Below, in pieces: positions 2,930 through 58,819 of a stretch of DNA of 58,819 nt. This stretch comes from a virus. Positions within the stretch are counted from its first letter, which is position 1, and every line of letters begins with the position of its first letter. Position numbers and translations under genes: made by a program. The stretch lies in the UHGV virus genome UHGV-1363177. The stretch is one strand, 5' to 3'. Under the pieces are notes generated by a model, which saw nothing but the letters and a program-made list of their open reading frames with translations, did not search any database and had not been told where the DNA came from.

Positions 2930-4348
2930 TTGGAAATCGACTATAAAGTATCTCCTACATTCATGAAGGTACATCAGGACACCTCCCGGGTCATCGGTGT
3001 TATGGGTCCTGTGGGTTCAGGTAAAAGTTCTGGCATGGTGTTCCAGTTATTCTTTAACGCCATGCAGCAACGTCCTGACAAGAACGGTGTGCGACACTCT
3101 CGGTACGCTGTAATCCGAGCTACATATCCTCAGCTTCGAAGTTCTACTATTAAGACTTGGATTGAATGGTTCAAAGATAAGATTCGTCTTGTGTACACAA
3201 CTCCCATTACTGGTCGAATTAAATATGACCTTGATGATGGAACTTCGATAGACATGGAAATCATGTTTATCGCTATCGAAGATGAACAAGCAGCAGAACG
3301 TCTTCGTTCTTGGGAATTTACTGGAGCTTGGGTAAATGAAGCTCACGAAGTTCCTGAGTACATCATGACTATCCTGATGCAACGTACCAATCGTTATCCT
3401 TCTATGAGAAGTGGTGGTGCGGTACATCCTTGTATTCTTCTTGACTACAACGCTGTATCCACTGACCATTGGCTTTATCGCTGGGCAGAAGAAACAAAAC
3501 CAGAAGGTTGTTCTTTCTATAAACAACCTCCTGCTATGATTGAATATGCCCCGGGGCAGTTCAGACTTAACCCTGATGCAGAGAACATTGAGAACCTTGA
3601 CGCTAACTACTATCCGAACATTGTAGCTGTGTCTTCGCGAGAATCAGTTCTTACTGACATTCTCAATCAATATGGTGAACGAAAGAGTGGTAAGCCTGTG
3701 TACAAGGATTATGATGACCAAGTGCACTACTCTGAAGATGCAATTGTGCCTCCGATGGGTAGTCATGTCATCATAGGTATTGACCAAGGTCTCTCTCCTG
3801 CTGCTGCTCTTACCTTTATGGATGCAGATGGTACACTAGTTGTGTTCGATGAGATTACAACTGTTGACTGTTCTCTCAAAGAATTTGCTGAAGAACTACT
3901 TTGGCCACGTATCTATTCCAAGTATCCGTGGATTCGTAACAATTTCTCGTGTGTAATTGACCCTGCTGCTGCTCAGCGAAGCATGAATGACGCTAAAGCG
4001 GGCTATGAAATCCTGAAAGAAGCTGGTCTTCCTATCACCTTAGCTCGAACTAACAACGCAACTGACCGTCGTGAGTCTGTAATTCACTTTCTTAGGTTGA
4101 AAAATAAGTTCAAGTTGACTCCGAACTGTAAGATTTTGCGTAAAGGTTTCATCTCAGGGTACAAGTACGAAGAAAAAAAGAGCGTTGATGGTAGAGTGTA
4201 CAAGGAAAAACCTATGAAGAATGAGTTTTCTCATGTACACGATGCCCTTCAGTACGCTTGTTTAGAGTACGCACACGTTAAACCTAAGAAAAATTTCAAT
4301 TCTACTCGTAAAACTTACCGTGTAGCTAGTGCAATCGGAGGTTATTAA
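2930..4348 (+). CDS. terL: Terminase large subunit (ATPase plus nuclease), TTG start
   Basis: Walker A GVMGPVGSGKSS near the N-terminus; about 470 aa; SD TAGGAG 8 nt upstream of the TTG at 2930; sits next to the portal gene. Confidence 0.9.
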   Translation: MEIDYKVSPTFMKVHQDTSRVIGVMGPVGSGKSSGMVFQLFFNAMQQRPDKNGVRHSRYAVIRATYPQLRSSTIKTWIEWFKDKIRLVYTTPITGRIKYDLDDGTSIDMEIMFIAIEDEQAAERLRSWEFTGAWVNEAHEVPEYIMTILMQRTNRYPSMRSGGAVHPCILLDYNAVSTDHWLYRWAEETKPEGCSFYKQPPAMIEYAPGQFRLNPDAENIENLDANYYPNIVAVSSRESVLTDILNQYGERKSGKPVYKDYDDQVHYSEDAIVPPMGSHVIIGIDQGLSPAAALTFMDADGTLVVFDEITTVDCSLKEFAEELLWPRIYSKYPWIRNNFSCVIDPAAAQRSMNDAKAGYEILKEAGLPITLARTNNATDRRESVIHFLRLKNKFKLTPNCKILRKGFISGYKYEEKKSVDGRVYKEKPMKNEFSHVHDALQYACLEYAHVKPKKNFNSTRKTYRVASAIGGY

Positions 4349-8024: not shown

Positions 8025-9068
8025 ATGGCTGGTACTGTTAATACTTCTAAGGGTACTGTGGTTGCCAATGGTCAGTCCACTGGTGGCAACCTGTCTACTA
8101 TGCTTAATGCTCATGCGATTTTCCAGTTCCTCACTCGTGCGCTGCCCTATCTGGTGTTCGAGAAGTTCGGTCAGGCTTACCCCCTGCCGGAAAAGAGCAC
8201 GAAGGTCGCTAAGTTCCGTCGCTACGAAGCTCTAGATGCTACTCCTACGAAGCTGACGGAAGGTGTCACGCCTGATTCTCAGGCCCTGACCACCACCGAC
8301 ATCAGCGCTACTCTGGACCAGTATGGTTCTCTGGTGACGCTGACCGACGTGCTGCTGGACACCAACGACTCTCGTGTGCTGGAAAACGCTGCTGCCGTCG
8401 TGGGTGAGCAGGCTGCTGAAATGATTGAACGTATGCGTATGGGTGTGCTGCTGGGCGGTTCTAACGTGGAATACGCTAATGGCGCTGCTCGTAGTGCTGT
8501 GAACACTCCCATTACTCTGGACCTCCAGCGTCGCATCGTGCGTAAGCTGAAGAACCAGAAGGCTCGTTACATCAACAGCATCATTCGTTCCACTCCCTCT
8601 TTCAACACTGAAAACGTGGCTCCCGGCTTTGTGGCCGTGTGTCATCCCGACTGCGAATCCGACATTCGTGATATGACCCATTTTCAGGATGTGAAGGACT
8701 ATGGTTCTGTGCCTGCTATGGAAAACGAAATCGGTGCTGTCGAGTGTGTGCGTTACCTGTTCACTACTCTGATGGAACCTTGGAAGGACGCCGGTGGTGC
8801 TAAAGCTGGTGTTGGTAATGTGGAAGTTCTGTCCACCACTGGTGCTTCTGCTGACGTGTATCCCGTGCTGTTTATCGCTAAGGATGCCTACGGTCTGATT
8901 CCCTTCAAGGGTACCTCGGCTGTGACCCCCATCATCGTGAACCCTGCTCCCTCCGCTTCCGACCCGCTGGGTCAGCGTGGTCACGTGGGCTGGAAGGCTA
9001 TGCAGACTGCTCTGATTCTGAATCAGGCTTGGATGGTTCGCGCTGAAGTGGCCGTCACCAAGAAGTAG
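8025..9068 (+). CDS. Major capsid protein (347 aa, HK97-fold type)
   Basis: Gene order after the scaffold; strongly host-adapted codon usage (high GC3, CTG/CGT/GGT) typical of the most expressed virion gene; hairpin terminator directly downstream. Confidence 0.8.
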   Translation: MAGTVNTSKGTVVANGQSTGGNLSTMLNAHAIFQFLTRALPYLVFEKFGQAYPLPEKSTKVAKFRRYEALDATPTKLTEGVTPDSQALTTTDISATLDQYGSLVTLTDVLLDTNDSRVLENAAAVVGEQAAEMIERMRMGVLLGGSNVEYANGAARSAVNTPITLDLQRRIVRKLKNQKARYINSIIRSTPSFNTENVAPGFVAVCHPDCESDIRDMTHFQDVKDYGSVPAMENEIGAVECVRYLFTTLMEPWKDAGGAKAGVGNVEVLSTTGASADVYPVLFIAKDAYGLIPFKGTSAVTPIIVNPAPSASDPLGQRGHVGWKAMQTALILNQAWMVRAEVAVTKK

Positions 9069-23638: not shown

Positions 23639-26600
23639 ATGGCTGGTTCCTTTACTGAATATTTGACTAATAGCTATGACCCCACTTCAGCGATGATAGG
23701 GACTTGGCTTGAACAGCAGGCTGTTAACCGTGCTATTGCTCGTGCTGAGATGGAAAAACTTTATCAGCAGAGACTTGCTGTCCAAGCTGCTCAGGCTAAA
23801 TCTAATCCGTATCTTGACTATCTTAGAGCACAGGCTGCTGCTGGTGTTACTCCCGGTACAGGCATGGCTCCTGTATATGGAGATGCCCCCACTCCTGCTG
23901 AAGCTCCCGGAGTTTGGGACCAATTCTTGAATCGTGCTGTTCCCCAGTCTCTTGCTGGTCTTGCTGGTGGTGTCGGTCTACTCGGTGACCTTATTGGTGC
24001 TGATTCTGTTCGAGACTGGGGTCTTGAAACCTCTCAATATTTCAACAACATCGCTGCACAAACTCCTCGAACTGTTGCTAGTCTCGAAGATGTTCTTTCT
24101 GGTAAAGGTGACTTCTCTACTTGGTTGAAAGAGAGTGCTATCGACCTTGCTCCTGACCTGATAGGTACCATTGCTACTGGTGGTACTGGTGGTCTTGCTG
24201 CCCGTGGCGGTGCTGCTCTTGCTGCTAGGGTTGCTGGAAAGGAACTGGCCGAGGGTGCTGCCAAGAAGGCTCTTCAGCGTGGTGCTCTTGCTGGTGCCTA
24301 CGGCTACGGAGTTGGAGCTGAAGGTGGTCAGGCTTACCTTACTGACGTAGAACGTCACGGTGTCGAAGGTACATCTCCTTGGATGGACCTCACCACAGGT
24401 GCTGTTGCTAGTGCTTTTGACCTTGCTGGTCCTGCCGGTGGTCTTGTTCTTAAAGCTCTTGGCCGTCCTGTCTCTAAGGCTGCTAGTGAAAAACTTCTCA
24501 GGACCCTTGCTTCTGAGAAGACTAGGACTGCTTTCCTTAAAGGTCTGGGTAAAGGTGCTCTTGCTGAGGGTGGTACTGAGTCCCTTCAGGAACTTACCCA
24601 TATTATCAATGAACAGCTCCAAAGTCCTGAGCTTGAATTTACTCCTCAGGATATCATGCGTCTGGTTGAATCTGGTCTTCTTGGTAGTATCTTTGGTGCT
24701 CCTATTGGTGCTGTCTCTAGGGTCCGCGCTAAGCAGCAGGCTCCTGCTCAGCTCAAGGCTCTTCTTGCCAATCAGTCTACTAGAGACACTTCTGATATAT
24801 CTGCTTCTCGATATGCTGAAGAACGCAAGGCTGCTCAGGACTATCTTGCTAATCTTCCTTCTAATCCTGCTCCTTTCGATAGCACTGTAGATTCTTTCTA
24901 CAATCGAACTCCTTCTGTGTCTAGTCCTATTGGGGAATACTATGCACAGAACTTTGATAAGCTCGATAACTTCTACAGTGACTTCGAGCAGAAGATGAAG
25001 ACTCCTTCTGAAGCTACTGCTGAAGCTGCTACGAGGCTGCGTACTTCTATGCGAAATGCTGCTGCACAGACTCAGCGACAGCTTAGTGAAGAAAGCACTA
25101 GACTGAATGCTGAAGCACAGACTCTTACAAATCAGCTTGCTAAACTGTCTAGCAAGCCTCCTCGTAACGTTACTCCTGAACAGCAGCGGGCATTGATTGC
25201 TGACCTTAACAAGCAGCTCGTTGCTAACAGGGCTGCTCAGGTCAGACTTCAGGAAGGTGCTAAAGAACGTGTTAGTTCTATTCAGCAGACTCTTGCTAAG
25301 GAAGAAAAGAAACTGGCTAACAAGCTGATGAATGACACTATCATCACGGACCAGTCTGGTCTGGCTCGTGATCCCTTCGGTGCCTCTCAGCTTATCCAGA
25401 TTCGTGGTGGAGCTAAAGCTCTGTTTGATAAGCAAGCTGCTGCTGTGCGAGAACGTCTCAATAAAGTTTCTGCTCAGCTTAGCCTTGCCGAACGTAGAAG
25501 TAAAAGCTCTCAAGCTACCCGCAGCATGGCACTTGCTAAGTTACTCGATGACCAGATTGCTGCTGGCAAGAAGGAACGTAATGAGCTTATCAAGCGTCTT
25601 CAGAAGATGAATGGTGCACTGGCTCGTATCGAAGCGGGTACTAACAATCTTGCTACTACTCAGTACACCGTTGACCAAGCTTACGTAGACTTGCAGGACA
25701 TCTACGACGGTGGTGTCATTGACACACCTACTCGTTCTGAAAAAGTTCTGTACGACACTCTGCGTAAAAGTCTTGATAATGTTGAAAAGAAAAGACGTGC
25801 TGAAGAACTGAAAGCTCGTACTGCTGCTCGTAGAGCTAAACGTCCTGATACTGTTACTGACTTTGACAAGACTCCAGATACCTTCTACAACAGAGAAGCT
25901 TCTGTAATTCCCAGTGCTACTCCTTTCGAAACTTCTGTTGATAGCTTCCTTTCTGGTACACCCTCTGTACAAGCTAATAACGTTCTTCAGTTAGCGCTTA
26001 CTGAAGGTCAAGCTAATCTTCCTGCTGTGTCTGAAGCTATCCCGATGGGTACTACGGACACCGGTGTTGATACCATTGCTCTTAACGCAGAGGGTGAGAC
26101 TATCCCTGTAGGTCCCGGTCGTGAACAGCTCATGCTTCCTGAAGGTGGTCAGGACTTTGACAGAACTCCTGACAGCTTCTACGGAACCACTCCCGAAGTC
26201 AAAGGCTTTGTTGAAAGTAATCCTGAAATTAAGAGTCCTATGATTTCTAGGTTCCCCGAAGCTGTGGATGCTTTCTACAACTACACGCCTGACATTGTGG
26301 AAGGTACGTGGCTGATGACTGATGCCACTACTAGACCTACGAAAGCTAAGTCTCCTAAGGAATCTGCTAAGCTTACTCCTAAAGACAAGAGCAATCTTGA
26401 TGTTACTAGAGCAATAGCTGATGAGGACTATAAGCAGGCTGTTGAAGATGTCCGACACGCTGCTATTAGACTTGAATCTACTAGCAAGAATGTTGATAAA
26501 AAGTCTTGGACTAAGAAACTTAATGACGGTCTTGTTAAAGCAAAGCAGGCTCTCAATAAGCTCCTTAATCTGAACATTGAACAGCTTCGTACTAATGCTG

Positions 26601-29600
26601 ACACCTCTAGTAAAAAGCTAGTTACTCAGGGTATTACACCGTCCCTTGAGATGCTTCCTCTGCTTTCTCACAACGTCACTATTGTTGACAGTGTGGATGT
26701 TCCCGAAGCTGCTGGCAGAACTGGTTACATTACTCGTGACCAGAAGATTTATCTTGTTGCAGATAACATTGTTGCTGAAGCTAAACAGCGTAAAAAGTCT
26801 GTCAAAGAAATAGCTACTCGTACTCTTGTGCATGAAGGTCTTGCTCACTATGGTCTTCGTGCCATTATGAGCCCTGCGGAACTCGGTAACTTCCTGCACG
26901 ATTTCAGGAGGAAGTTCGAGAATACTCCTACTTGGAAACGAGCTGCTGCTTCTATTCCTGAGTTTGACCAGCTCAATAAAAGACAGCAGGCTGAAGAAGT
27001 CTTTGCTAAACTTTCCGAACGTCACAAGATTAACAATCTTCTTGAGTCCCGCAATCTGGCAAAGGGTTATCTGAACAGTTTCATTAAGAAACTTGACAGC
27101 AAACTGGGACTGACTGACCTTACCCTTGATGATGTTAAGTCACTTCTTACTGTAGCTGCTGACAGACTGTCTATGGAATCTGCTGGTCAGGGTGCTGCTG
27201 ACATTGGAGCACATTATAGAACCATTCCTCAGACTGGTCTTGCTCGTTCTCTTGACCCCAACCTTGAATCTATGACCCGTGTTGAACGTGCTGAGGCTGA
27301 GGCGGCTCAGCGATTCCCTTTTTCTAACAGAGTTCAAGAGGTAGTAGCTAATAGAGAAAACACTGTCGAATACCTTCGAGAAGGTTTGATTGATAGCTTC
27401 CGTCCTGTTGAACGAATGATTCAAGCTGTTAAGGACTTGGGAAAGAAAGCTGATAACAAAGCTCGTGTCACTTGGGACACTAACGTCTACAAGCTTAGCC
27501 AGCATCTTTCCAGTCAGCAAGCTCTTGCACTTCAACAGTACAAGACCAACTTTGTTGACCCGCTTGTTGACCTTATCAGTGACACAGCCCTTCCGGGTGA
27601 AGACTACAGAGTAACCTTTGCTCGTGTATCTGACTATGTTGAAGCTGTTGCTGCCTATGAGCGTAACGACTTCGGAGCTAAGAAGGGTCTTGACTTCCCC
27701 CTCGTTCCGGGTAAGAAGGGTACATCTCTTCAGGAAAGTCAGGACTACTTCCGCAGTGTCATCAACAAGTACAGCTCTGAGTCCATGAACAAGGTAATGG
27801 ACCAACTCCAGAAGATTAACAATGAGCGTCTTCGTCTACTCGAAGAAAAGAAGATTATCCCGAAGGAAGTCATTGATAACTGGAGAGCTACGTACAAGTA
27901 CTACATGCCCTTCAAGAGTTGGGAGAATGTGGTACAGGAACTTGACCCCGCTTGGTACAACAGCAACACTCGTCGGTCTTTGTCTACTCCTAACGTTCAG
28001 AAGAAGATAATGAAGCGAGCTACTGGTCGTGAAGGTGAAGCTCAGAATCCTATTCTGCACTCCATCCTTCAGCTCTATGATGTGAGTAACCTTTCTCGTA
28101 CTGTTGACATTGGTCGTTCTCTTCTGAGACTTGTTCGTAACAATCCTGACGCTACTAGTATCTTCGAAATGGTAGAGTACAGAGATAAGAATGACAAAGA
28201 CTGGGGTAAACCTAGACTCACTACTGACCCTGAAACTGGTGAGCAAGTCTACGTTGTTGACCACGGTGCTATGAAACGTGTAGTCAACAAACAGACTGGT
28301 GACATCTCTCTTGTGCCTACTAAGCACACTGCCGAAGGTGAAATGAAAAACACTGTGGCAGTTATTGATGAGGATGGTACTGTACAGAGGGTGTTACTAC
28401 ATGACAGTGGTGTGGCTAGAGCTCTTAGAGCTGAGAACATTACTAGAGCTTCTGGTGTTGTTCGAGCTATTGGTGCTATCCAACACGAGCTTGGAAAGTA
28501 CATGACTTCTCGAAATCCTTTGTTCTGGATTACCAACCCCATTCGAGATACCGTGTCTGCTGCTATTAACATCAGCGCACTGAGTCAGGAACTTGAAGCC
28601 CTTGGCATTCCTAACTCCAAGGAAATCTCTCAGTCCATTCTGGTCAACGGTCTTGGTAAGACACTTACTAAGAACAGTGTTCGTAATGCTCTTATGTACT
28701 TCCGTAAGTACGGCACCTTCAATGATGTAACCATTAAGAATAAGGATGGTTCTACTAAGACTATCAAGTCTGGTCTCAGTGATGAGATGAAGATGTTCAT
28801 GAGTGACTACGAACAGTACTTGAACTACGGCGGACAGACTGAATACTTTGGAACGAACACTTATGAAACGTTAAGGAAAGACATCTTGTCTGCACTGAAG
28901 GACAAGAATCCCAAAACGTTTCTTGAAAAGCAACGTAGTAACATCAATAAAATGATGGAGTACATGGATGAGGTGAGTAACTCTCTCGAAAACATGACTC
29001 GTTACATTGCTTTCAAAGAAATCGTAGACCGCCTTAAGCCTTACGCTGAAGCCGGTAGGACTGCTGACGGTAGACCTTTCAGCTACGAAGAAATGTACAG
29101 TCGAGCTGCTAACATTGCCCTCAACCTTACTGTGAACTTCTCTCGAAAAGGTAGCTGGGCTCCTATTTTCAACTCTCTGTACATGTTCGCTAGTGCTAGC
29201 ATTGGTGGTAACGTTCGTATGCTGGAGACTATCTTCCGTAAGGACAGAAAAACTGGCAAGACTGACTGGAATCACGTAGCTAGATTCGCTATGTATCCCA
29301 TGCTGGGTTACGCTCTGCAAGCTATCATTGCTCGTGCTCTCATGGGTGACGATGATGATGGTGTCAGCTTCTATGATAAGATTCCTGAATACATCAAAGC
29401 TAGTAACATCATCCTTCCTAATCCTTTTAGTAAGGGTGACTATATCACTATCCCGATTACTTATGGTTTCGACATGTTCTGGAACCTTGCTATGAACATC
29501 TTCGAAGCTGGTCACAGTGCTGCTTACGGCAACCCCGGCCCCAACGCTACGGAAGCTGCTTCCTCTATCATTGGTAAGATGTTCAACAACTTCGCAACCA

Positions 29601-30310
29601 TTGGTGGTACTGATGAAGGCTGGACTGCTTTTGTTCCCAGCATTATTCGTCCTCTGTGGCAGTTGTCTATGAACAAGAACTTTGCAGGTAATCCTATTAT
29701 GCCTACCGGCAATGAGAACCTGCGAGGTGAAATCCCTGACCATGAAAAGTATTGGAGCACAGCCAACCCCAGTCTTGTGTGGCTGACTAAAGCTCTCTCT
29801 CCCATCATTGATGTCTCTCCCGAAAGTGTTGAACACATTGCTAACGCCTACCTCGGTGGCCTTGGACGTATTACCTTTGGTCTCCTTGGTAGAGTTGACG
29901 AATGGGCTCGCTATGGGTTAGACCACATTGATGTGGGTAAAGTGCCCGGTCTTAAAGTTCTGTACAAGACTACTCAGGACAGTGACACCAGTGCTATGTT
30001 CTCGAAGATGAGAACTAATGTACTCACTCAGATTAACGCAGTTGACACTGCTCGAACTGACATGAGACTCACTCCTGAAGAAAAGAGAGCTGTACTGATG
30101 GATAATCTCCAAGGCTACAGGCTCAAGCCTACCTTGAATAAACTTCAGCAACAGCTTAACCTGCTTCGAGAACAAGAGCGTAAGTTAATGAACAATCCCT
30201 CCATTTCTTCTGACACCAAGGCTACACGTCTTGACCAGATAAACCAACTCAAGCAACGTGCTATGAAGCAGTTCATTAAATCTGCTAATCAAGCTGGTGT
30301 GATTGGTTAA
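23639..30310 (+). CDS. Giant internal virion/ejection protein (2223 aa)
   Basis: 6.7-kb ORF at the end of the virion module (analogous position to T7 gp16). Ala/Gly-rich low-complexity N-terminus, long coiled-coil stretches, HEGLAH motif near residue 1060. No polymerase motifs recognised. Confidence 0.7.
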   Translation: MAGSFTEYLTNSYDPTSAMIGTWLEQQAVNRAIARAEMEKLYQQRLAVQAAQAKSNPYLDYLRAQAAAGVTPGTGMAPVYGDAPTPAEAPGVWDQFLNRAVPQSLAGLAGGVGLLGDLIGADSVRDWGLETSQYFNNIAAQTPRTVASLEDVLSGKGDFSTWLKESAIDLAPDLIGTIATGGTGGLAARGGAALAARVAGKELAEGAAKKALQRGALAGAYGYGVGAEGGQAYLTDVERHGVEGTSPWMDLTTGAVASAFDLAGPAGGLVLKALGRPVSKAASEKLLRTLASEKTRTAFLKGLGKGALAEGGTESLQELTHIINEQLQSPELEFTPQDIMRLVESGLLGSIFGAPIGAVSRVRAKQQAPAQLKALLANQSTRDTSDISASRYAEERKAAQDYLANLPSNPAPFDSTVDSFYNRTPSVSSPIGEYYAQNFDKLDNFYSDFEQKMKTPSEATAEAATRLRTSMRNAAAQTQRQLSEESTRLNAEAQTLTNQLAKLSSKPPRNVTPEQQRALIADLNKQLVANRAAQVRLQEGAKERVSSIQQTLAKEEKKLANKLMNDTIITDQSGLARDPFGASQLIQIRGGAKALFDKQAAAVRERLNKVSAQLSLAERRSKSSQATRSMALAKLLDDQIAAGKKERNELIKRLQKMNGALARIEAGTNNLATTQYTVDQAYVDLQDIYDGGVIDTPTRSEKVLYDTLRKSLDNVEKKRRAEELKARTAARRAKRPDTVTDFDKTPDTFYNREASVIPSATPFETSVDSFLSGTPSVQANNVLQLALTEGQANLPAVSEAIPMGTTDTGVDTIALNAEGETIPVGPGREQLMLPEGGQDFDRTPDSFYGTTPEVKGFVESNPEIKSPMISRFPEAVDAFYNYTPDIVEGTWLMTDATTRPTKAKSPKESAKLTPKDKSNLDVTRAIADEDYKQAVEDVRHAAIRLESTSKNVDKKSWTKKLNDGLVKAKQALNKLLNLNIEQLRTNADTSSKKLVTQGITPSLEMLPLLSHNVTIVDSVDVPEAAGRTGYITRDQKIYLVADNIVAEAKQRKKSVKEIATRTLVHEGLAHYGLRAIMSPAELGNFLHDFRRKFENTPTWKRAAASIPEFDQLNKRQQAEEVFAKLSERHKINNLLESRNLAKGYLNSFIKKLDSKLGLTDLTLDDVKSLLTVAADRLSMESAGQGAADIGAHYRTIPQTGLARSLDPNLESMTRVERAEAEAAQRFPFSNRVQEVVANRENTVEYLREGLIDSFRPVERMIQAVKDLGKKADNKARVTWDTNVYKLSQHLSSQQALALQQYKTNFVDPLVDLISDTALPGEDYRVTFARVSDYVEAVAAYERNDFGAKKGLDFPLVPGKKGTSLQESQDYFRSVINKYSSESMNKVMDQLQKINNERLRLLEEKKIIPKEVIDNWRATYKYYMPFKSWENVVQELDPAWYNSNTRRSLSTPNVQKKIMKRATGREGEAQNPILHSILQLYDVSNLSRTVDIGRSLLRLVRNNPDATSIFEMVEYRDKNDKDWGKPRLTTDPETGEQVYVVDHGAMKRVVNKQTGDISLVPTKHTAEGEMKNTVAVIDEDGTVQRVLLHDSGVARALRAENITRASGVVRAIGAIQHELGKYMTSRNPLFWITNPIRDTVSAAINISALSQELEALGIPNSKEISQSILVNGLGKTLTKNSVRNALMYFRKYGTFNDVTIKNKDGSTKTIKSGLSDEMKMFMSDYEQYLNYGGQTEYFGTNTYETLRKDILSALKDKNPKTFLEKQRSNINKMMEYMDEVSNSLENMTRYIAFKEIVDRLKPYAEAGRTADGRPFSYEEMYSRAANIALNLTVNFSRKGSWAPIFNSLYMFASASIGGNVRMLETIFRKDRKTGKTDWNHVARFAMYPMLGYALQAIIARALMGDDDDGVSFYDKIPEYIKASNIILPNPFSKGDYITIPITYGFDMFWNLAMNIFEAGHSAAYGNPGPNATEAASSIIGKMFNNFATIGGTDEGWTAFVPSIIRPLWQLSMNKNFAGNPIMPTGNENLRGEIPDHEKYWSTANPSLVWLTKALSPIIDVSPESVEHIANAYLGGLGRITFGLLGRVDEWARYGLDHIDVGKVPGLKVLYKTTQDSDTSAMFSKMRTNVLTQINAVDTARTDMRLTPEEKRAVLMDNLQGYRLKPTLNKLQQQLNLLREQERKLMNNPSISSDTKATRLDQINQLKQRAMKQFIKSANQAGVIG

Positions 30311-31881: not shown

Positions 31882-32550
31882 TATATGTTTATCCTTATTG
31901 TAAGGGTTAATAGGAGGGAGGCCATGCTGAAAGAAAAAGAAATCCCCAGCTACACTCTCAGGTCTCTCGCAGTTGGCAGTGGGTTTTTCAGGTTGGGTTC
32001 CGGCGAGGTTTGGCATTAGACGGTCTTTTTGTTTGGCATGTATTCAGACAAGCGAAGACCAAGAGTGCAACTGGGGAAATTTGTTAAGTTCAAGTACAAT
32101 GTGAGAGTAGCACCAACCTCAGTCAAGTGTTAAAAGGTTTAGCTTCGAGTGAAGGTTGCAGAAGCACTGCGAAGCTTACGGGCGCTTACCTTTCCACTAT
32201 TTTCTTTTCAAGGGCTTGAGACTCTTTTGTGTTGAAGTGGGTCATCATGGTACCACTCTCACAGTGTACTTGAACTAGAGAAAATTTGATTCCTTCATCA
32301 TCTACTTTACTTGACCACAGTCAGGTTTCTTAGACAATACAGGGATTTTTTAAAGTGGGCCTGAATCCACTAACTTTTTATTGCCTGAGGTTGGAGGTTA
32401 CAAAACAAGCTCAAGCAGACGATGAAGGAAATTCTAGGAAATTTGTGTCGGGATATATTTATCCACCCTCCCGACTAGGGGTGGCGCTCAAGGAGAAACA
32501 AGCTACCTAGGGGCAACAAACTAAGTAGCTCGCGCTGTGTGGCTTAATGA

Positions 32551-32775
32551 TTAGGCAGCCTTAGTAACTTCAAGGTCAGCCGTAACGTTAGTTTTCATCT
32601 TCATTTCATTAGACTCTTCTTCCGGGGGAAAAGCCTGAAGCAGAGCAATGGGCAGCATCTTCTTAAAGAGTTCCCACTCAGCTTCAGAGAACTCACGAGA
32701 GGGAATCGTCAGTTCAAATTCTTCAAAGTCCTTTTCAGCAGTAGAAGCACGGAAGAACATCTTAGTACCATTCAT
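32551..32775 (-). CDS. Hypothetical acidic small protein (74 aa)
   Basis: ORF in the leftward operon. Confidence 0.4.
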   Translation of the reverse strand: MNGTKMFFRASTAEKDFEEFELTIPSREFSEAEWELFKKMLPIALLQAFPPEEESNEMKMKTNVTADLEVTKAA

Positions 32776-55729: not shown

Positions 55730-56425
55730 CTAGGCGGCACGCTTCTCAACCTTAGCCAGCGTATTCAGGATGGCCTGAATCAGCAAATCCAGCGTGCTGT
55801 CCCCCGGCACTTCGTACTGGGACAGCATGTGGAAAATCTGCTTCATCTTCGGGGACAGCACCACAGCTTGCGGATTTTCCGGGCGTTCCTTCACCAGCGT
55901 AGCGGGCACGGCGTCCTTAATGTCAAGGCCAGCATTCTCCGCGTCCTTCTGGAGCTTGCTGAACTTCTTCTTCAGATCGTCCAAGGTCATCGCAGGCTTT
56001 TCCTTCTTTTCCTTTTCGACCTTGGTTTCAGCATCCCAGCGCACACCAGCCATGTAGCCACGGCCAGCAGCCACCAGATATTCCGCGAACTCCACAGGCA
56101 GGGGGCCACCGTTTTCAGGCTTAGTAGTAGCGTGGTTCAGCTTCTTGAGAATGCCCAGGGCCTTGCTCTGGGCGTACCTCAGCTTACCTCCATCATAAGT
56201 AAACGGCACCGACTGACTGGACATGTACGTCCCAGCAACCTTCCGCATGGCACCGTCAAGGATGTCCAAGACCTTGTTCAAGGCCGTGGCGTTGGCGTTG
56301 GCGATGCCGAACTCCATCCCAGCCGTCAAGAGTTCCTGCACAGCGTTGACGAACTCGGACTTGGTGCGAGCCAGCACTACCAGCTTGGACTCAAAGTCCT
56401 GCTCGGACATGGTAAAGTTAATCAT
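55730..56425 (-). CDS. Hypothetical early protein (231 aa), first gene of the leftward early operon
   Basis: SD GGAGGA 7 nt before the ATG; GC-rich codon usage. Confidence 0.6.
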   Translation of the reverse strand: MINFTMSEQDFESKLVVLARTKSEFVNAVQELLTAGMEFGIANANATALNKVLDILDGAMRKVAGTYMSSQSVPFTYDGGKLRYAQSKALGILKKLNHATTKPENGGPLPVEFAEYLVAAGRGYMAGVRWDAETKVEKEKKEKPAMTLDDLKKKFSKLQKDAENAGLDIKDAVPATLVKERPENPQAVVLSPKMKQIFHMLSQYEVPGDSTLDLLIQAILNTLAKVEKRAA

Positions 56426-56502
56426 ACGTCATTCCTCCGTGTGACATTGTTGATAAAAGACCTACCTTACAAGTGTTCTAAAGAGCGATTGTCTTTAGTC
56501 CA

Positions 56503-56541
56503 ACAAAAAAGGCCACGAACCTTTTTACAGTTCGTGGCCTC
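56503..56541 (-). terminator. Rho-independent terminator (GGCCACGAAC...GTTCGTGGCC, T6 run on the minus strand)
   Basis: 10-bp stem flanked by A6 on the plus strand (U6 on the minus strand); insulates the early operon from upstream transcription. Confidence 0.7.
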
Positions 56542-57607
56542 AATGTTGTACCAAACGGCACATGTTCCAAAGTATTCAGTCGTTCGCCTTTAGCTCCAGC
56601 CTAGCCGTTACGTTTCCTCGCGACTACCTTGACCATAGCAAAGGCTATATTTTCATCGGAAGAGCCTTTATTCCACTACGTCACCTCGTGGCCTGATTCG
56701 CTTCACTTGTTTTGTACCGGCAAGCCTTTGGAAAACTTGCGCCAAGTGTCAGGGGTATCGCCCTTCCGGCAGTATATACTTTGGACGCTTGTCCTTTTCC
56801 GTCTTTATTGGAGTTACCTTGCGCGTAATTACACAAGGTAAGACCTCACAGCACACGCACACAAGCCACAAGGGCTGGGCAGGCTGCGGAAAGCATACTC
56901 ATATCGTCTTTGCCCGCTTTTCTCTACGGGGGCGTGCTGTTCACACATCAGTACACGCTTGTCCATCAACGCGTAGGGAATGCCCTACTTGGCTTTGAAT
57001 GGGGAGCCTTGCCCCGTTGGATTGACCTTGCCAGCTTTCCGCTAGATTGTCAATTCTTTTTTTCAAAGTTCCGAAAAATTTTTCGGCCCTTTGAAAGCGC
57101 CTTGTGAGGGAAGACCCTCACTAGGCAGATTCAGACTAGGGCATTTTGCTGTACCTTGTCAATCTTTTTTTGAGATTTGACAAACAGGCTTGGCACTATG
57201 CCTGCCCTCTCGTGAGGGCTGCTAGCAGGCTTTCAGGGAATGCCCCGAACGCAAGCCCAGACTGCCGGAATGCTGGCATGATGTCAATGACTTTTCCGAA
57301 AAATTTTTATATTTTTATCTTCAATAATTTCAGGTACTTATGCATATGCCTAGAATCTTTTTTAAAAGTTCAATGATTCCAGCTAGTTACGCTTTCCCTG
57401 TCGTGCTTATATGTAACGCGTGCGCGCATACATGTGCGGGCATATGAGTGAAAATGTGCTACATGCCTCAAAATGAGCCACAAAGGGCCTTAGAATCGCT
57501 GAAAGGGCTTTTTCCATATCATTGCCTAGCTTTTCCCTTTTCGTGGCTTATAAGCCCCATTCTGTCCCATTTTGGAGCATGTGGGGCTTTTCATAGGCAA
57601 CAAAAAA
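56542..57607. promoter_or_regulatory. About 1.07-kb ORF-poor regulatory/origin-like region with palindromes and iterated motifs
   Basis: Contains the CCGAAAAATTTTTCGG palindrome (57071-57086) and TTGTCAAT(T/C)CTTTTTTT repeated at about 57040 and 57160, the second embedded in an inverted repeat. Also GGGAATGCCC repeats, ACGCGTGCGCGCATACATGTGCGGGCATATG, and multiple short hairpins. Only spurious ORFs of 76 aa or less. Confidence 0.5.
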
Positions 57608-57645
57608 GCCCCCTTGCGATTGCTCACGAGGGGGCTTTGTTTTGC
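57608..57645. terminator. Bidirectional rho-independent terminator (GCCCCCTTGCG...CGAGGGGGC with T-tracts on both strands)
   Basis: Stem flanked by A6 upstream and TTTGTTTT downstream on the plus strand; 12 nt from the stop of 57658..58317. Confidence 0.75.
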
Positions 57646-57657
57646 TAACTGCTTGTT

Positions 57658-58317
57658 TTAGCTAGCTTTTTTGCGGATGATGATGGTAACTTCCTGATTT
57701 TCCTCTACTTTCTGGGCTTCGGACTGCATCTTGCTTGTGAGAGCATTGCATTTTTTCTGCAAAATGAAGGCTTTACTCTCGTTTCTATTGCGTTCCGCCC
57801 TGCGCTTGCTGCGCTTTAAGGTAGCCAATTCTTCGGAATCATTATTCTTTTGAGGAGCAAGGCGCGTCCCCAGTCTATCCTTTGCCATATTTTTCTTGGC
57901 CCTGCTCCCAAGATGCACAACCTGACGTTGTTCTTTGGGGGCTTTATCATACAGGATTCTCGCACCTGTGACTGTATCAATGCGCTTTGTCATCTTTTTA
58001 ATGCGCTTTTTTGCAGTTTCTTCGGCGTGAAGTAATTGCGTAATGCCCTCAAGTTCCTTTGTTTCAACAATCAGCGCGGCAACGTAACGCTTTATTACGT
58101 CATCTGCGAGACTCTTATATTGCTTACCAGAAAGCCCCGGAACCTGCCCTTTATAGAGTTCCATCAATCTTTTGCGGTCATCTGTCCGCAAGGTGCAAGG
58201 ATAAATGCGGTTCACATCTATCAAACTCGCGTCCAGTACGATGTTATTGCTTACTGCTTTGGCGCGTTCAATAGTGCTAAACATAGCCTTCACGCGGGAG
58301 ACATCATAGTCAGTCAT
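57658..58317 (-). CDS. Hypothetical basic coiled-coil protein (219 aa), possible DNA-binding regulator; codon usage differs from the rest (GCG/CGC-rich)
   Basis: Long ORF with a terminator directly downstream; K/R-rich. Confidence 0.55.
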   Translation of the reverse strand: MTDYDVSRVKAMFSTIERAKAVSNNIVLDASLIDVNRIYPCTLRTDDRKRLMELYKGQVPGLSGKQYKSLADDVIKRYVAALIVETKELEGITQLLHAEETAKKRIKKMTKRIDTVTGARILYDKAPKEQRQVVHLGSRAKKNMAKDRLGTRLAPQKNNDSEELATLKRSKRRAERNRNESKAFILQKKCNALTSKMQSEAQKVEENQEVTIIIRKKAS

Positions 58318-58597: not shown

Positions 58598-58682
58598 TGT
58601 CAGTTCCTTGGGTTTAAGAGTTACTATCTAATAGCCATTGCCTGATATGGATTAGACTACTTTTTTCTTCCGTTGGCAAGCC

Positions 58683-58735
58683 CCTTTTTGAAAAATTTTT
58701 CTTCAATTATTTCAAGTACTTGTGAATGACTGTTA
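58683..58735. promoter_or_regulatory. Repeat of the GAAAAATTTTT...TCTTCAAT(T/A)ATTTCA(A/G)GTACTT box also present at 57296-57345
   Basis: 35-nt near-identical motif in two intergenic positions about 1.4 kb apart. Confidence 0.45.
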
Positions 58736-58819
58736 TTTGTGAGTTGCATAACTGTTATTTGTGTAACTCATTGGTATCATTGCGCTTTGCAATTAAATGA
58801 TAAAAGTTTTTATCGTGGC

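Follow-up and report, generated by a model that had tools for sequence, protein, structure and literature searches.

A gene-free gap with tandem leftward promoter candidates and a putative large structured RNA in a podovirus-like gut phage

The 58,819-nucleotide (nt) virus genome UHGV-1363177, analyzed here in its whole length and referred to as the window, contains a gap at positions 56503-57645 that lacks genes, evolves under purifying selection in its core, folds in a strand-specific manner, accumulates compensatory changes and recurs in its layout throughout a family of related phages. We interpret this region, with a probability of roughly 65%, as a leftward non-coding unit composed of three tandem promoters of the host type, a folded RNA and its own terminator, with read-through into an early operon. 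According to this interpretation, the host RNA polymerase would start leftwards at three sites (P1, P2 and P3) spaced 109 to 125 nt apart, each made of an A-rich upstream tract, a perfect TTGACA and a minimal -10 element. Each predicted transcript would open with its own stem-loop, and all of them would run into a conserved folded core of ~400 nt and stop at the terminator at 56541-56503, giving nested RNAs of ~750, ~625 and ~515 nt. Polymerases reading through this terminator would feed the downstream early operon, whose first gene encodes a protein of 231 amino acids (aa). A first-pass annotation had suggested, among other roles, a long non-coding RNA transcribed rightwards to a terminator at 57608-57645; the kind of element is retained here, and its direction and end are replaced by a minus-strand RNA reaching 56541-56503, based on consensus folding, G-U-containing helices and the orientation of the promoters.

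The virus is a podovirus-like gut phage of roughly 59 kilobases (kb). Its ~58.8-kb genome is complete and circularly permuted, and has been recovered repeatedly from human gut metagenomes as sequences of 58.7 to 58.9 kb with varying start points. The closest cultured phages are of the HMO-2011 and Roseobacter CRP type, with a portal identity of merely 30 to 33%. A plus-strand block (~2.2-31 kb) encodes a large terminase of 472 aa, an SU10-type portal, the major head protein, a tail fibre, internal virion proteins and a 2223-aa polyvalent protein. The minus-strand block extends from ~1.75 kb leftwards over the window ends to ~32.8 kb, and carries small genes of unknown function followed by a primase, a DnaB-type helicase, a family-A DNA polymerase, an exonuclease and ThyX. 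The gap is located in this leftward block, between the genes of a 219-aa protein (57658-58317) and the 231-aa protein (55730-56425), and the neighboring genes all face left. No phage RNA polymerase was recognized among the gene products of this genome, ribosome-binding sites are strong (GGAGG), and it contains a few canonical TTGACA-17/18-TAnnnT promoters elsewhere; we therefore adopted a host enzyme of the sigma-70/sigma-A type as the working assumption for transcription.

No open reading frame (ORF) of a credible gene occurs at 56426-57657 in this phage. The longest ORF within 56503-57645 measures 76 aa (57146-57376, plus strand), in agreement with the limit given in the first-pass annotation. 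TAA, TAG and TGA each interrupt all six frames of the region, thus excluding stop-codon reassignment or an alternative genetic code, and small peptides in the core were ruled out by single-base insertions or deletions at ~56727 and in two relatives (L009 and L017) that break every small ORF. Furthermore, neither a protein-coding gene nor a pseudogene was found as an open frame in the window, the eight close relatives or three distant lineages, and no tRNA or tmRNA genes were found in the window. The two flanking proteins gave nothing significant against Pfam, PHROGs and PDB, including a search with a family profile of the 231-aa protein, and the single-sequence AlphaFold model of the latter had a mean predicted local distance difference test score (pLDDT) of 43.8, too poor for use.

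In public data, both flanking proteins are represented by close relatives only, at 88 to 91% identity for the 231-aa protein and 80 to 89% for the 219-aa protein, the latter plus one identical cluster. Their contigs, from human and pig gut, provided eight further distinct versions of the gap, 83 to 91% identical overall, and all close relatives keep a gene-free gap of 1.19 to 1.25 kb. Part-by-part identities were measured to the window sequence over 2.7 kb. In the flanking genes, identity was 58 to 82% at codon position 3 and 87 to 98% at positions 1 and 2. Within the gap, it was 76 to 92% at 57602-57301, 85 to 89% at 57300-56940, and 92.5 to 96.2% in the core at 56939-56542, which is the slowest-evolving piece of the sequence compared according to sliding identity. 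The core thus evolves as slowly as codon positions 1 and 2 of the flanking genes, and it is 4 to 5 times less diverged than synonymous sites in each pairwise comparison. Since this reduction is uniform over all pairs, it indicates purifying selection and not one recent transfer. In three relatives (L008 5681-5905, L016 4864-5088 and L019 2416-2640), the RNA terminator is separated from the 231-aa gene by an additional 74-aa ORF that has a terminator of its own; this insertion lies outside the RNA region and looks like a moron-type cassette.

The elements of the proposed RNA, from its predicted starts to the gene that follows it, are the following.

57259..57300, minus strand: candidate promoter P1, GGAAAAGTCA, -35 TTGACA at 57287-57282, 17-nt spacer, -10 CAGTCT at 57264-57259, predicted start at ~57252
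57233..57248, minus strand: stem-loop UCGGGGCAUUCCCUGA with which the P1 transcript would begin (helix 4), deleted whole in relative L019
57133..57173, minus strand: candidate promoter P2, A-tract AAAAAAAGA, -35 TTGACA at 57162-57157, 18-nt spacer, -10 TAGTCT at 57138-57133, predicted start at ~57126
57097..57127, minus strand: 12-pair stem-loop (GUGAGGG UCUU CCCUCAC core) with which the P2 transcript would begin (helix 12)
57025..57064, minus strand: candidate promoter P3, A-tract AAAAAAAGAA, -35 TTGACA at 57053-57048, 17-nt spacer, -10 CAAGGT at 57030-57025, predicted start at ~57018
56542..56939, minus strand: conserved structured core of the RNA, with a long irregular helix (56898-56846 with 56632-56582), an inner branched domain (56770-56655) and small hairpins
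56503..56541, minus strand: intrinsic terminator ending the RNA, GAGGCCACGAAC...GUUCGUGGCCUU then UUUUUUG, 13 pairs (7 G-C), stem 56541-56509
56426..56502, minus strand: leader of the 231-aa gene with a GGAGG ribosome-binding site and no convincing promoter

Folding supports the minus strand as the transcribed one. Single-sequence folding of 56500-57300 was stronger on the minus strand (z = -6.6) than on the plus strand (z = -4.7), and consensus folding of the nine sequences at 57300-56929 reached -113.5 versus -89.2 kcal/mol. For the core, the minus strand reached a consensus value of -137.5 kcal/mol and the plus strand one of -112.6, against -107.1 +/- 5.7 in column-shuffled alignments; the minus strand therefore stands at z = -5.3, while the plus strand (z = -0.96) is at background. 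In the minus-strand structure of the 5' part, 97% of cells are paired and 14 pairs change on both sides, compared with 5.5 +/- 1.6 in shuffles (none of 500 reaching 14) and with 0 to 4 when the partners are slid. In the core, 99.1% of cells are paired and double-sided changes affect five pairs, against 2.5 +/- 1.2 in shuffles and 0 to 1 with slid partners. Additionally, ten pairs of the 38-pair irregular long-range helix (56898-56846/56632-56582) vary one-sidedly via G-U intermediates, and indels take out or lengthen whole hairpins in three relatives (L017, L019 and L020). The individual helices with double changes are credible, and the global fold of the core is to be taken as a model. Altogether, the region bears the marks by which structured non-coding RNAs are generally recognized, namely no coding capacity, conservation above neutral, a strand-specific consensus fold and compensatory changes.

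A covarying stem-loop directly follows each predicted start (helices 4, 12, 16 and 18 of the 5' part fold), and these elements may act as 5' stabilizers. In helix 4, G-C, G-U and A-U are all seen at one pair, and helix 12 has two pairs with changes in both partners (GUG/CAC to GCA/UGU). The minus-strand TTGACA elements at 57287, 57162 and 57053 are perfect and do not vary among the nine sequences. Their -10 partners keep just -11A and -7T: that of P1 is CATTCT or CATTAT in relatives, that of P3 is CAATGT in three relatives, and TAGTCT of P2 is invariant. An A/T-rich, UP-like tract abuts the -35 element of P2 (AAAAAAAGA) and P3 (AAAAAAAGAA), and P1 has the weaker GGAAAAGTCA. A hairpin or a palindrome of the A5T5 type, among them CCGAAAAATTTTTCGG, precedes each promoter A-tract, with similar elements in two distant relatives (L105 and L106); these could be curved DNA, operators or part of the RNA. 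The early-promoter cluster proposed in the first-pass annotation is thus supported by the invariant TTGACA elements and by the family-wide modules described below, with the correction that its orientation is leftward (minus strand).

The terminator at 56541-56503, also predicted in the first-pass annotation, was recovered with its 13-pair stem and T-run. It has the G+C-rich stem-loop and the U-run on the transcribed strand expected of an intrinsic terminator, and it is 100% identical in seven of the eight relatives, the eighth having a change from A-U to G-U. The segment 56707-56686 repeats the 5' arm of this terminator but pairs elsewhere (helix 14, with a compensatory change), and consequently there is no sign of an alternative anti-terminator fold. 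No convincing promoter was detected between the terminator and the 231-aa gene, and since the leader at 56426-56502 lacks one, the gene would probably rely on terminator read-through. A further terminator is located beyond the 231-aa gene, at 55712-55682.

The remaining elements of the gap are listed here.

57599..57641, minus strand: intrinsic terminator of the upstream 219-aa gene, stem ~57636-57608, U-run 57607-57602; stem kept and loop variable in nine relatives
57346..57598, no strand assigned: conserved non-coding stretch with box copy b (57368-57394) and a hypervariable tract (57406-57431), 76 to 92% identical to relatives
57304..57345, minus strand: AT-rich box a (TAAGTACCTGAAATTATTGAAGATAAAAAT), nearly invariant, repeated at 58686-58727 and holding the weak candidate promoter P0
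57306..57333, minus strand: weak candidate promoter P0 inside box a, CTGAAA at 57333-57328, 16-nt spacer, TATAAA at 57311-57306
57061..57096, no strand assigned: palindrome UUUCAAAG-GGCCGAAAAAUUUUUCGGAA-CUUUGAAA holding CCGAAAAATTTTTCGG, just upstream of the P3 A-tract and absent in L019

The hairpin at 57602-57641, previously taken as a bidirectional terminator, does have U-rich runs on both sides, and its function would be to end the 219-aa gene on the minus strand; read on the plus strand it is a hairpin with a T-run, yet no nearby plus-strand gene needs a terminator. The stretch 57346-57598 was given no strand because its consensus folding is equal on both (-48.0 vs -49.6 kcal/mol). P0 is uncertain, since its -10 element is not kept in five of nine relatives (TGTAAA). 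The palindrome at 57061-57096 corresponds to helix 13 of the 5' part consensus fold, in which A-U, G-U and G-C alternate, and A6T6 palindromes like it lie upstream of promoters in L105 and L106.

All of the motifs listed in the first-pass annotation are present in the sequence, with small corrections. The perfect palindrome CCGAAAAATTTTTCGG lies at 57071-57086. The motif TTGTCAAT(T/C)CTTTTTTT, which is the reverse complement of the A-tract plus TTGACA, has its two copies at 57048-57064 and 57157-57172, separated by 109 nt and not ~115; the second is one base short of the proposed consensus and lies, as described, inside the inverted repeat TTGTCAATC...GATTTGACAA. Two copies of AGGGAATGCCC lie at 56975 and 57235, and the GC-rich block is the alternating purine/pyrimidine tract at 57406-57431 (ACGCGTGCGCGCATACATGTGCGGGC). 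No other piece of the gap varies as much as this tract, which differs in length and sequence in nearly every relative and resembles a microsatellite or a Z-DNA-prone tract. The box said to measure 35 nt and to be repeated at 58697 is a real repeat, now delimited to 42 nt (57304-57345) and recurring at 58686-58727 with 79% identity, with a third, weaker copy at 57353-57394. GAAAAATTTTTC with up to one mismatch occurs three times in the window against 0.21 expected (no shuffle of 100 reaching three). Motif counts by themselves are just weakly above chance in this one sequence: AAAAARNRTTGACA occurs twice against 0.68 expected (13 of 100 shuffles reaching two). The motifs are held to be real because they are invariant in the nine relatives and recurrent in other lineages.

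Within these boxes, the sequence TA(C/G)CTG(A/G)AAT.ATTGAA(G/C) has three minus-strand copies, all in early non-coding regions (57319-57336, 57368-57385 and 58701-58718), and one looser plus-strand match within a gene (8413-8430). The two copies in the gap, which are those covered by the comparison, are nearly invariant in the aligned relatives, and two of the three minus-strand copies adjoin a GAAAAATTTTT palindrome. This box may be bound by a regulator, or else it may be the promoter of a phage-specific factor.

Relatives of the terminase number in the hundreds, on contigs of 57 to 62 kb, and they place the gap in a wider context. Judged from the window sequence alone, P1 to P3 would be weak candidates, and it is this wider family that would settle their assignment as promoters. 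In L105, L106 and L107, whose terminases are 85, 81 and 68% identical to that of this phage, the strand opposite the terminase presents the same succession of a gene, a terminator, a gene-free gap of 1.0 to 1.3 kb, a terminator and a homologue of the 231-aa protein (40, 27 and 29% identity, respectively). The gap of L105 starts with four modules 115 to 124 nt apart, each formed by an A-tract, TTGAC(A/G/T), 17 to 18 nt and a -10 element (TAGTCT, TAGAGT, TAGAGT and GAGAGT), the first of which is the same as the -10 of P2. In L106, four TTGACA modules could be picked out by eye; three are paired with TAGTAT, TATAAG and GATAAC, and the fourth with a weaker -10-like element. Promoters of canonical form (TTGACA-17/18-TAGAGT, TAGTAT or TATAAG) thus occur in these lineages. 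More distant phages with 56 to 60% terminase identity (L025, L027 and L029) bear such modules in gene-free stretches of 0.8 to 2.3 kb. Distant relatives thus carry two to four modules with recognizable -10 elements, and the modules equivalent to P1-P3 in L105, L106, L025 and L029 carry TAGAGT, TAGTAT, TATAAG or GATAGT. A whole-locus scan revealed that modules of an A-tract plus TTGACA are almost confined to the gene-free gaps and to the leftward (promoter) strand. Since the modules recur in the gaps of related lineages, the promoter cluster is a family trait, of which the three sites in the window are the local version.

Past the last promoter, every lineage has a body of 0.5 to 0.9 kb without genes and a terminator just before the gene of the 231-aa type; terminators end the bodies in L105, L106 and L107. 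On the transcribed strand, these bodies fold better than dinucleotide shuffles, with z values between -2.8 and -3.4 in the window, L105 and L106; the value of -9.1 in L107 refers to the entire gap, promoter zone included. Both flanking genes served as coding controls and gave -0.6 and -0.8. The body sequences are unrelated between lineages. The body thus appears tightly constrained within a lineage, and between lineages it appears replaced or diverged past recognition.

Two further observations concern these relatives. The gene-free early regions of L025 (5683-7934) and L027 (1763-4097), whose terminases show 60% identity, measure 2.25 kb in the former and 0.8 plus 1.2 kb in the latter, and they are conserved between these two phages in patches, at 67 to 91%. 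The otherwise unrelated bodies of L105 (~3215-3240) and L107 (~3520-3550), both on the minus strand, have a small motif in common, TGTTTCAC(A/G)TG(A/G)AAC...GCAAGCGG, which may be a trace of shared ancestry.

Searches for known RNAs and for homologues of the gap were mostly negative. No match to Rfam 15, which includes GOLLD, ROOL, OLE, pRNA, 6S, tmRNA and RNase P, was obtained in the window at gathering thresholds, and at E <= 10 the window gave only terminator look-alikes of at most 30 bits; neither the relatives nor the other lineages matched any family. Searches of GenBank phages and PLSDB plasmids with blastn and tblastn, using the region and both flanking proteins, gave no match, and exact-pattern scans with four invariant core pieces of 20 to 25 nt produced zero hits in IMG/VR, JGI metagenomes and GTDB genomes. 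Profiles of three parts of the gap, run with nhmmer against 80 IMG/VR loci around related terminases, retrieved nothing at E below 0.04, and against L105-L109 the promoter zone alone matched, in L105 and L106. A covariance model of the inner 117-nt domain found only the window itself, and word-7 blastn among the bodies of six lineages gave L025-L027 as the sole matching pair.

It is important to consider the points that weigh against the interpretation of the gap as a leftward non-coding unit. The -10 elements of P1 (CAGTCT) and P3 (CAAGGT) are poor, and a standard promoter scan detects none of P1, P2 and P3. Every transcript end is a predicted one. The comparative depth is shallow (nine sequences at 83 to 91% identity), and consequently the covariation of the core is modest, with 24 of 500 shuffles reaching the five pairs observed; moreover, the structure tested was predicted from the very alignment used for testing. 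Relatives of the core were detected within one narrow lineage only, which makes a universal function unlikely, and its membership in a family of RNAs is unproven. Finally, the evidence so far would fit a role in trans and a role in cis alike.

Regarding these roles, our tentative preference, held at somewhat below even odds, is that the terminated RNA is itself the product, an abundant early RNA that would act in trans by binding or decoying a lineage-specific factor of the host or the phage. A trans-acting role is favored because of the dedicated terminator, the multiple promoters, the tight constraint over ~400 nt within the lineage and the turnover between lineages. The promoters would probably fire early and strongly, and the RNA would accumulate.

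The main alternative, though an unlikely one, is that the structured RNA works in cis, as a leader controlling read-through of the terminator at 56541-56503 and of later terminators, either by modifying the polymerase, as HK022 put does, or by attenuation. The order of promoters, structured RNA, terminator and promoterless genes is kept in four lineages, no convincing promoter separates the terminator from the 231-aa gene, a second terminator follows that gene at 55712-55682, and extra cassettes of an ORF plus a terminator are tolerated downstream. Furthermore, the position between promoters and the first terminator would fit a processive antitermination RNA of the put/EAR type. However, antitermination and leader RNAs of the put type measure 65 to 120 nt, far shorter than the near-invariant core of ~400 nt found here, and an RNA acting on the conserved host polymerase should have motifs common to the lineages, none of which were found. 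No put-like motif was identified, Rfam gave no match for a put/EAR-type element, and the pairing of 56707-56686 in helix 14 leaves no sign of an anti-terminator fold.

It is improbable that the RNA from the tandem promoters serves as a primer or forms an R-loop for the family-A DNA polymerase, in the manner of the transcription-primed T7 primary origin, T4 oriF/oriG and ColE1 RNA II. The phage does encode that polymerase together with a DnaB-like helicase and a primase, the promoters are in tandem with a structured transcript downstream, and a lineage-specific body is often true of origins. On the contrary, the RNA ends in a strong conserved terminator and not in an AT-rich unwinding element, selection retains G-U pairs on one strand, and the core lacks iterons. 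The iteron origin considered in the first-pass annotation was likewise not sustained, as its repeats are promoter parts 109 to 125 nt apart plus a 12-base-pair (bp) palindrome, and the core is repeat-free with 47 to 55% G+C. Positions 58598-58819 joined to 1-750 across the circular genome are far more origin-like, and they appear a better candidate for a replication origin or packaging site than the 1.1-kb gap. This second ORF-poor stretch of the leftward block has ~12 tandem AT-rich units of 8 bp (~345-445), a G+C-rich block (262-340), an imperfect palindrome of ~200 nt (515-709), a palindrome of 80 nt (181-262) and short ATGACTG-type repeats (20-125 and 58723-58763).

Very improbable, in turn, is that the promoters are real and the ~450 nt downstream are a functionless spacer or leader, held by DNA-level constraint or recent recombination. 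The lack of conservation of the body across lineages and the modest covariation in the core would agree with this possibility, but no other part of the 2.7 kb is as conserved as the core, which has diverged 4 to 5 times less than synonymous sites and folds in a strand-specific way, and every lineage keeps a body of 0.5 to 0.9 kb despite a compact genome. A rightward RNA of ~1 kb ending at the plus side of the 57602-57641 hairpin can be given only a very small probability: the hairpin bears a plus-strand T-run and 57346-57598 folds equally on both strands, but the region has no plus-strand promoter module, the core consensus fold on the plus strand equals the shuffled background, and the neighboring genes and promoter modules are all leftward. 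A decayed gene, or one in an alternative genetic code, is virtually discounted by the three stop codons in every frame, by conservation above and not below that of real genes, and by the relatives, all of which were gene-free in the gap when an intact version was looked for.

Compared with known systems, the predicted promoters resemble T7 A1, A2 and A3, three strong promoters for the host polymerase that lie ~110 to 130 bp apart in the same orientation at the head of early transcription, in their number, spacing and single orientation. The early RNA of T7 carries stem-loops, as the one predicted here would, and A1-A3 feed protein genes after a short leader, whereas here the predicted promoters would feed a conserved non-coding core of ~400 nt with its own intrinsic terminator; they also differ in their minimal -10 elements and in the A-tracts and A5T5 palindromes upstream. 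In lambda pR'-6S RNA-tR' and HK022 put, the interval from an early or late promoter to the first terminator is taken up by a non-coding transcript, and the genes beyond it depend on read-through. The transcript predicted here has the same position before the first terminator, but it would be 5 to 10 times longer, no Q or N homologue was recognized among the neighboring genes, and it has no put-like motif. The pRNA of phi29 is an abundant, terminated RNA of 174 nt from a strong early promoter, in phages without a classical terminase. Our predicted RNA would likewise be terminated and early, from a strong early promoter, in a phage that does have a 472-aa large terminase, and it has no Rfam match.

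GOLLD and ROOL are large ornate phage-associated RNAs of at least 500 nt, intricately folded and of unknown function (PMC12286853). The RNA proposed here is similar in size, in its intricate predicted fold and in its carriage by a phage, but it matches no Rfam 15 model even at E <= 10, has no tRNA genes nearby and is so far known from one narrow phage lineage. In virulent Pseudomonas phages, non-coding RNAs of ~80 to 210 nt derived from 5' untranslated regions by premature termination have been seen experimentally and are conserved within the genus only (PMC10914365). These have in common with the present case a promoter, a structured RNA and a terminator upstream of a gene, as well as narrow sequence conservation, and they differ from the 515 to 750 nt and three promoters found here, which are predicted only.

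Other observations and discarded candidates concern the genome more generally. The 2223-aa virion protein (23639-30310, plus strand) has an LPD38 'large polyvalent protein' domain, and its C-terminal 1000 aa match PHROG families of ~2800- to 3400-aa proteins of unknown function. The idea that it is a virion RNA polymerase using hairpin promoters was dropped, as the protein shows just that domain and those PHROGs. A sponge RNA of the CsrA type was also rejected, since GGA motifs, judged by eye, are no commoner than composition predicts. A gene-free stretch of ~750 nt (32017-32761) lies where the rightward and leftward gene blocks converge. Some relatives of the terminase at 2930-4348 (among P0035, P0055, P0066 and P0072) are ~800 aa long with a LAGLIDADG domain (PF14528), which suggests an intein or homing-endonuclease insertion in sister phages.

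What is new here is a candidate large RNA in a new genomic arrangement, with a promoter cluster of a known kind, and not a categorically new system. To our knowledge, large structured RNAs are uncommon in phages, and hardly any has an established function. The genomic logic, with tandem strong-looking promoters, a dedicated terminator and selection as strict as that on proteins, points to very high early expression. This phage family is common in human and pig gut metagenomes, and the layout recurs across it with differing RNA bodies. A bolder and rather unlikely reading is that this family of 57- to 62-kb gut phages starts infection by flooding the cell with an ornate RNA of 0.5 to 0.9 kb from two to four tandem strong promoters, the body being frozen within lineages and swapped between them, which would constitute a new class of early RNA effector. 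On this reading, the RNA would be, for example, a decoy for a host defense or nuclease, or a large polymerase-reprogramming RNA, evolving in an arms race and with the core in the window as one member. If confirmed, the family would offer compact strong promoter and terminator parts for use in the host of the phage, and a tractable set of natural variants for asking what purpose a large RNA serves for a phage during the first minutes after infection.

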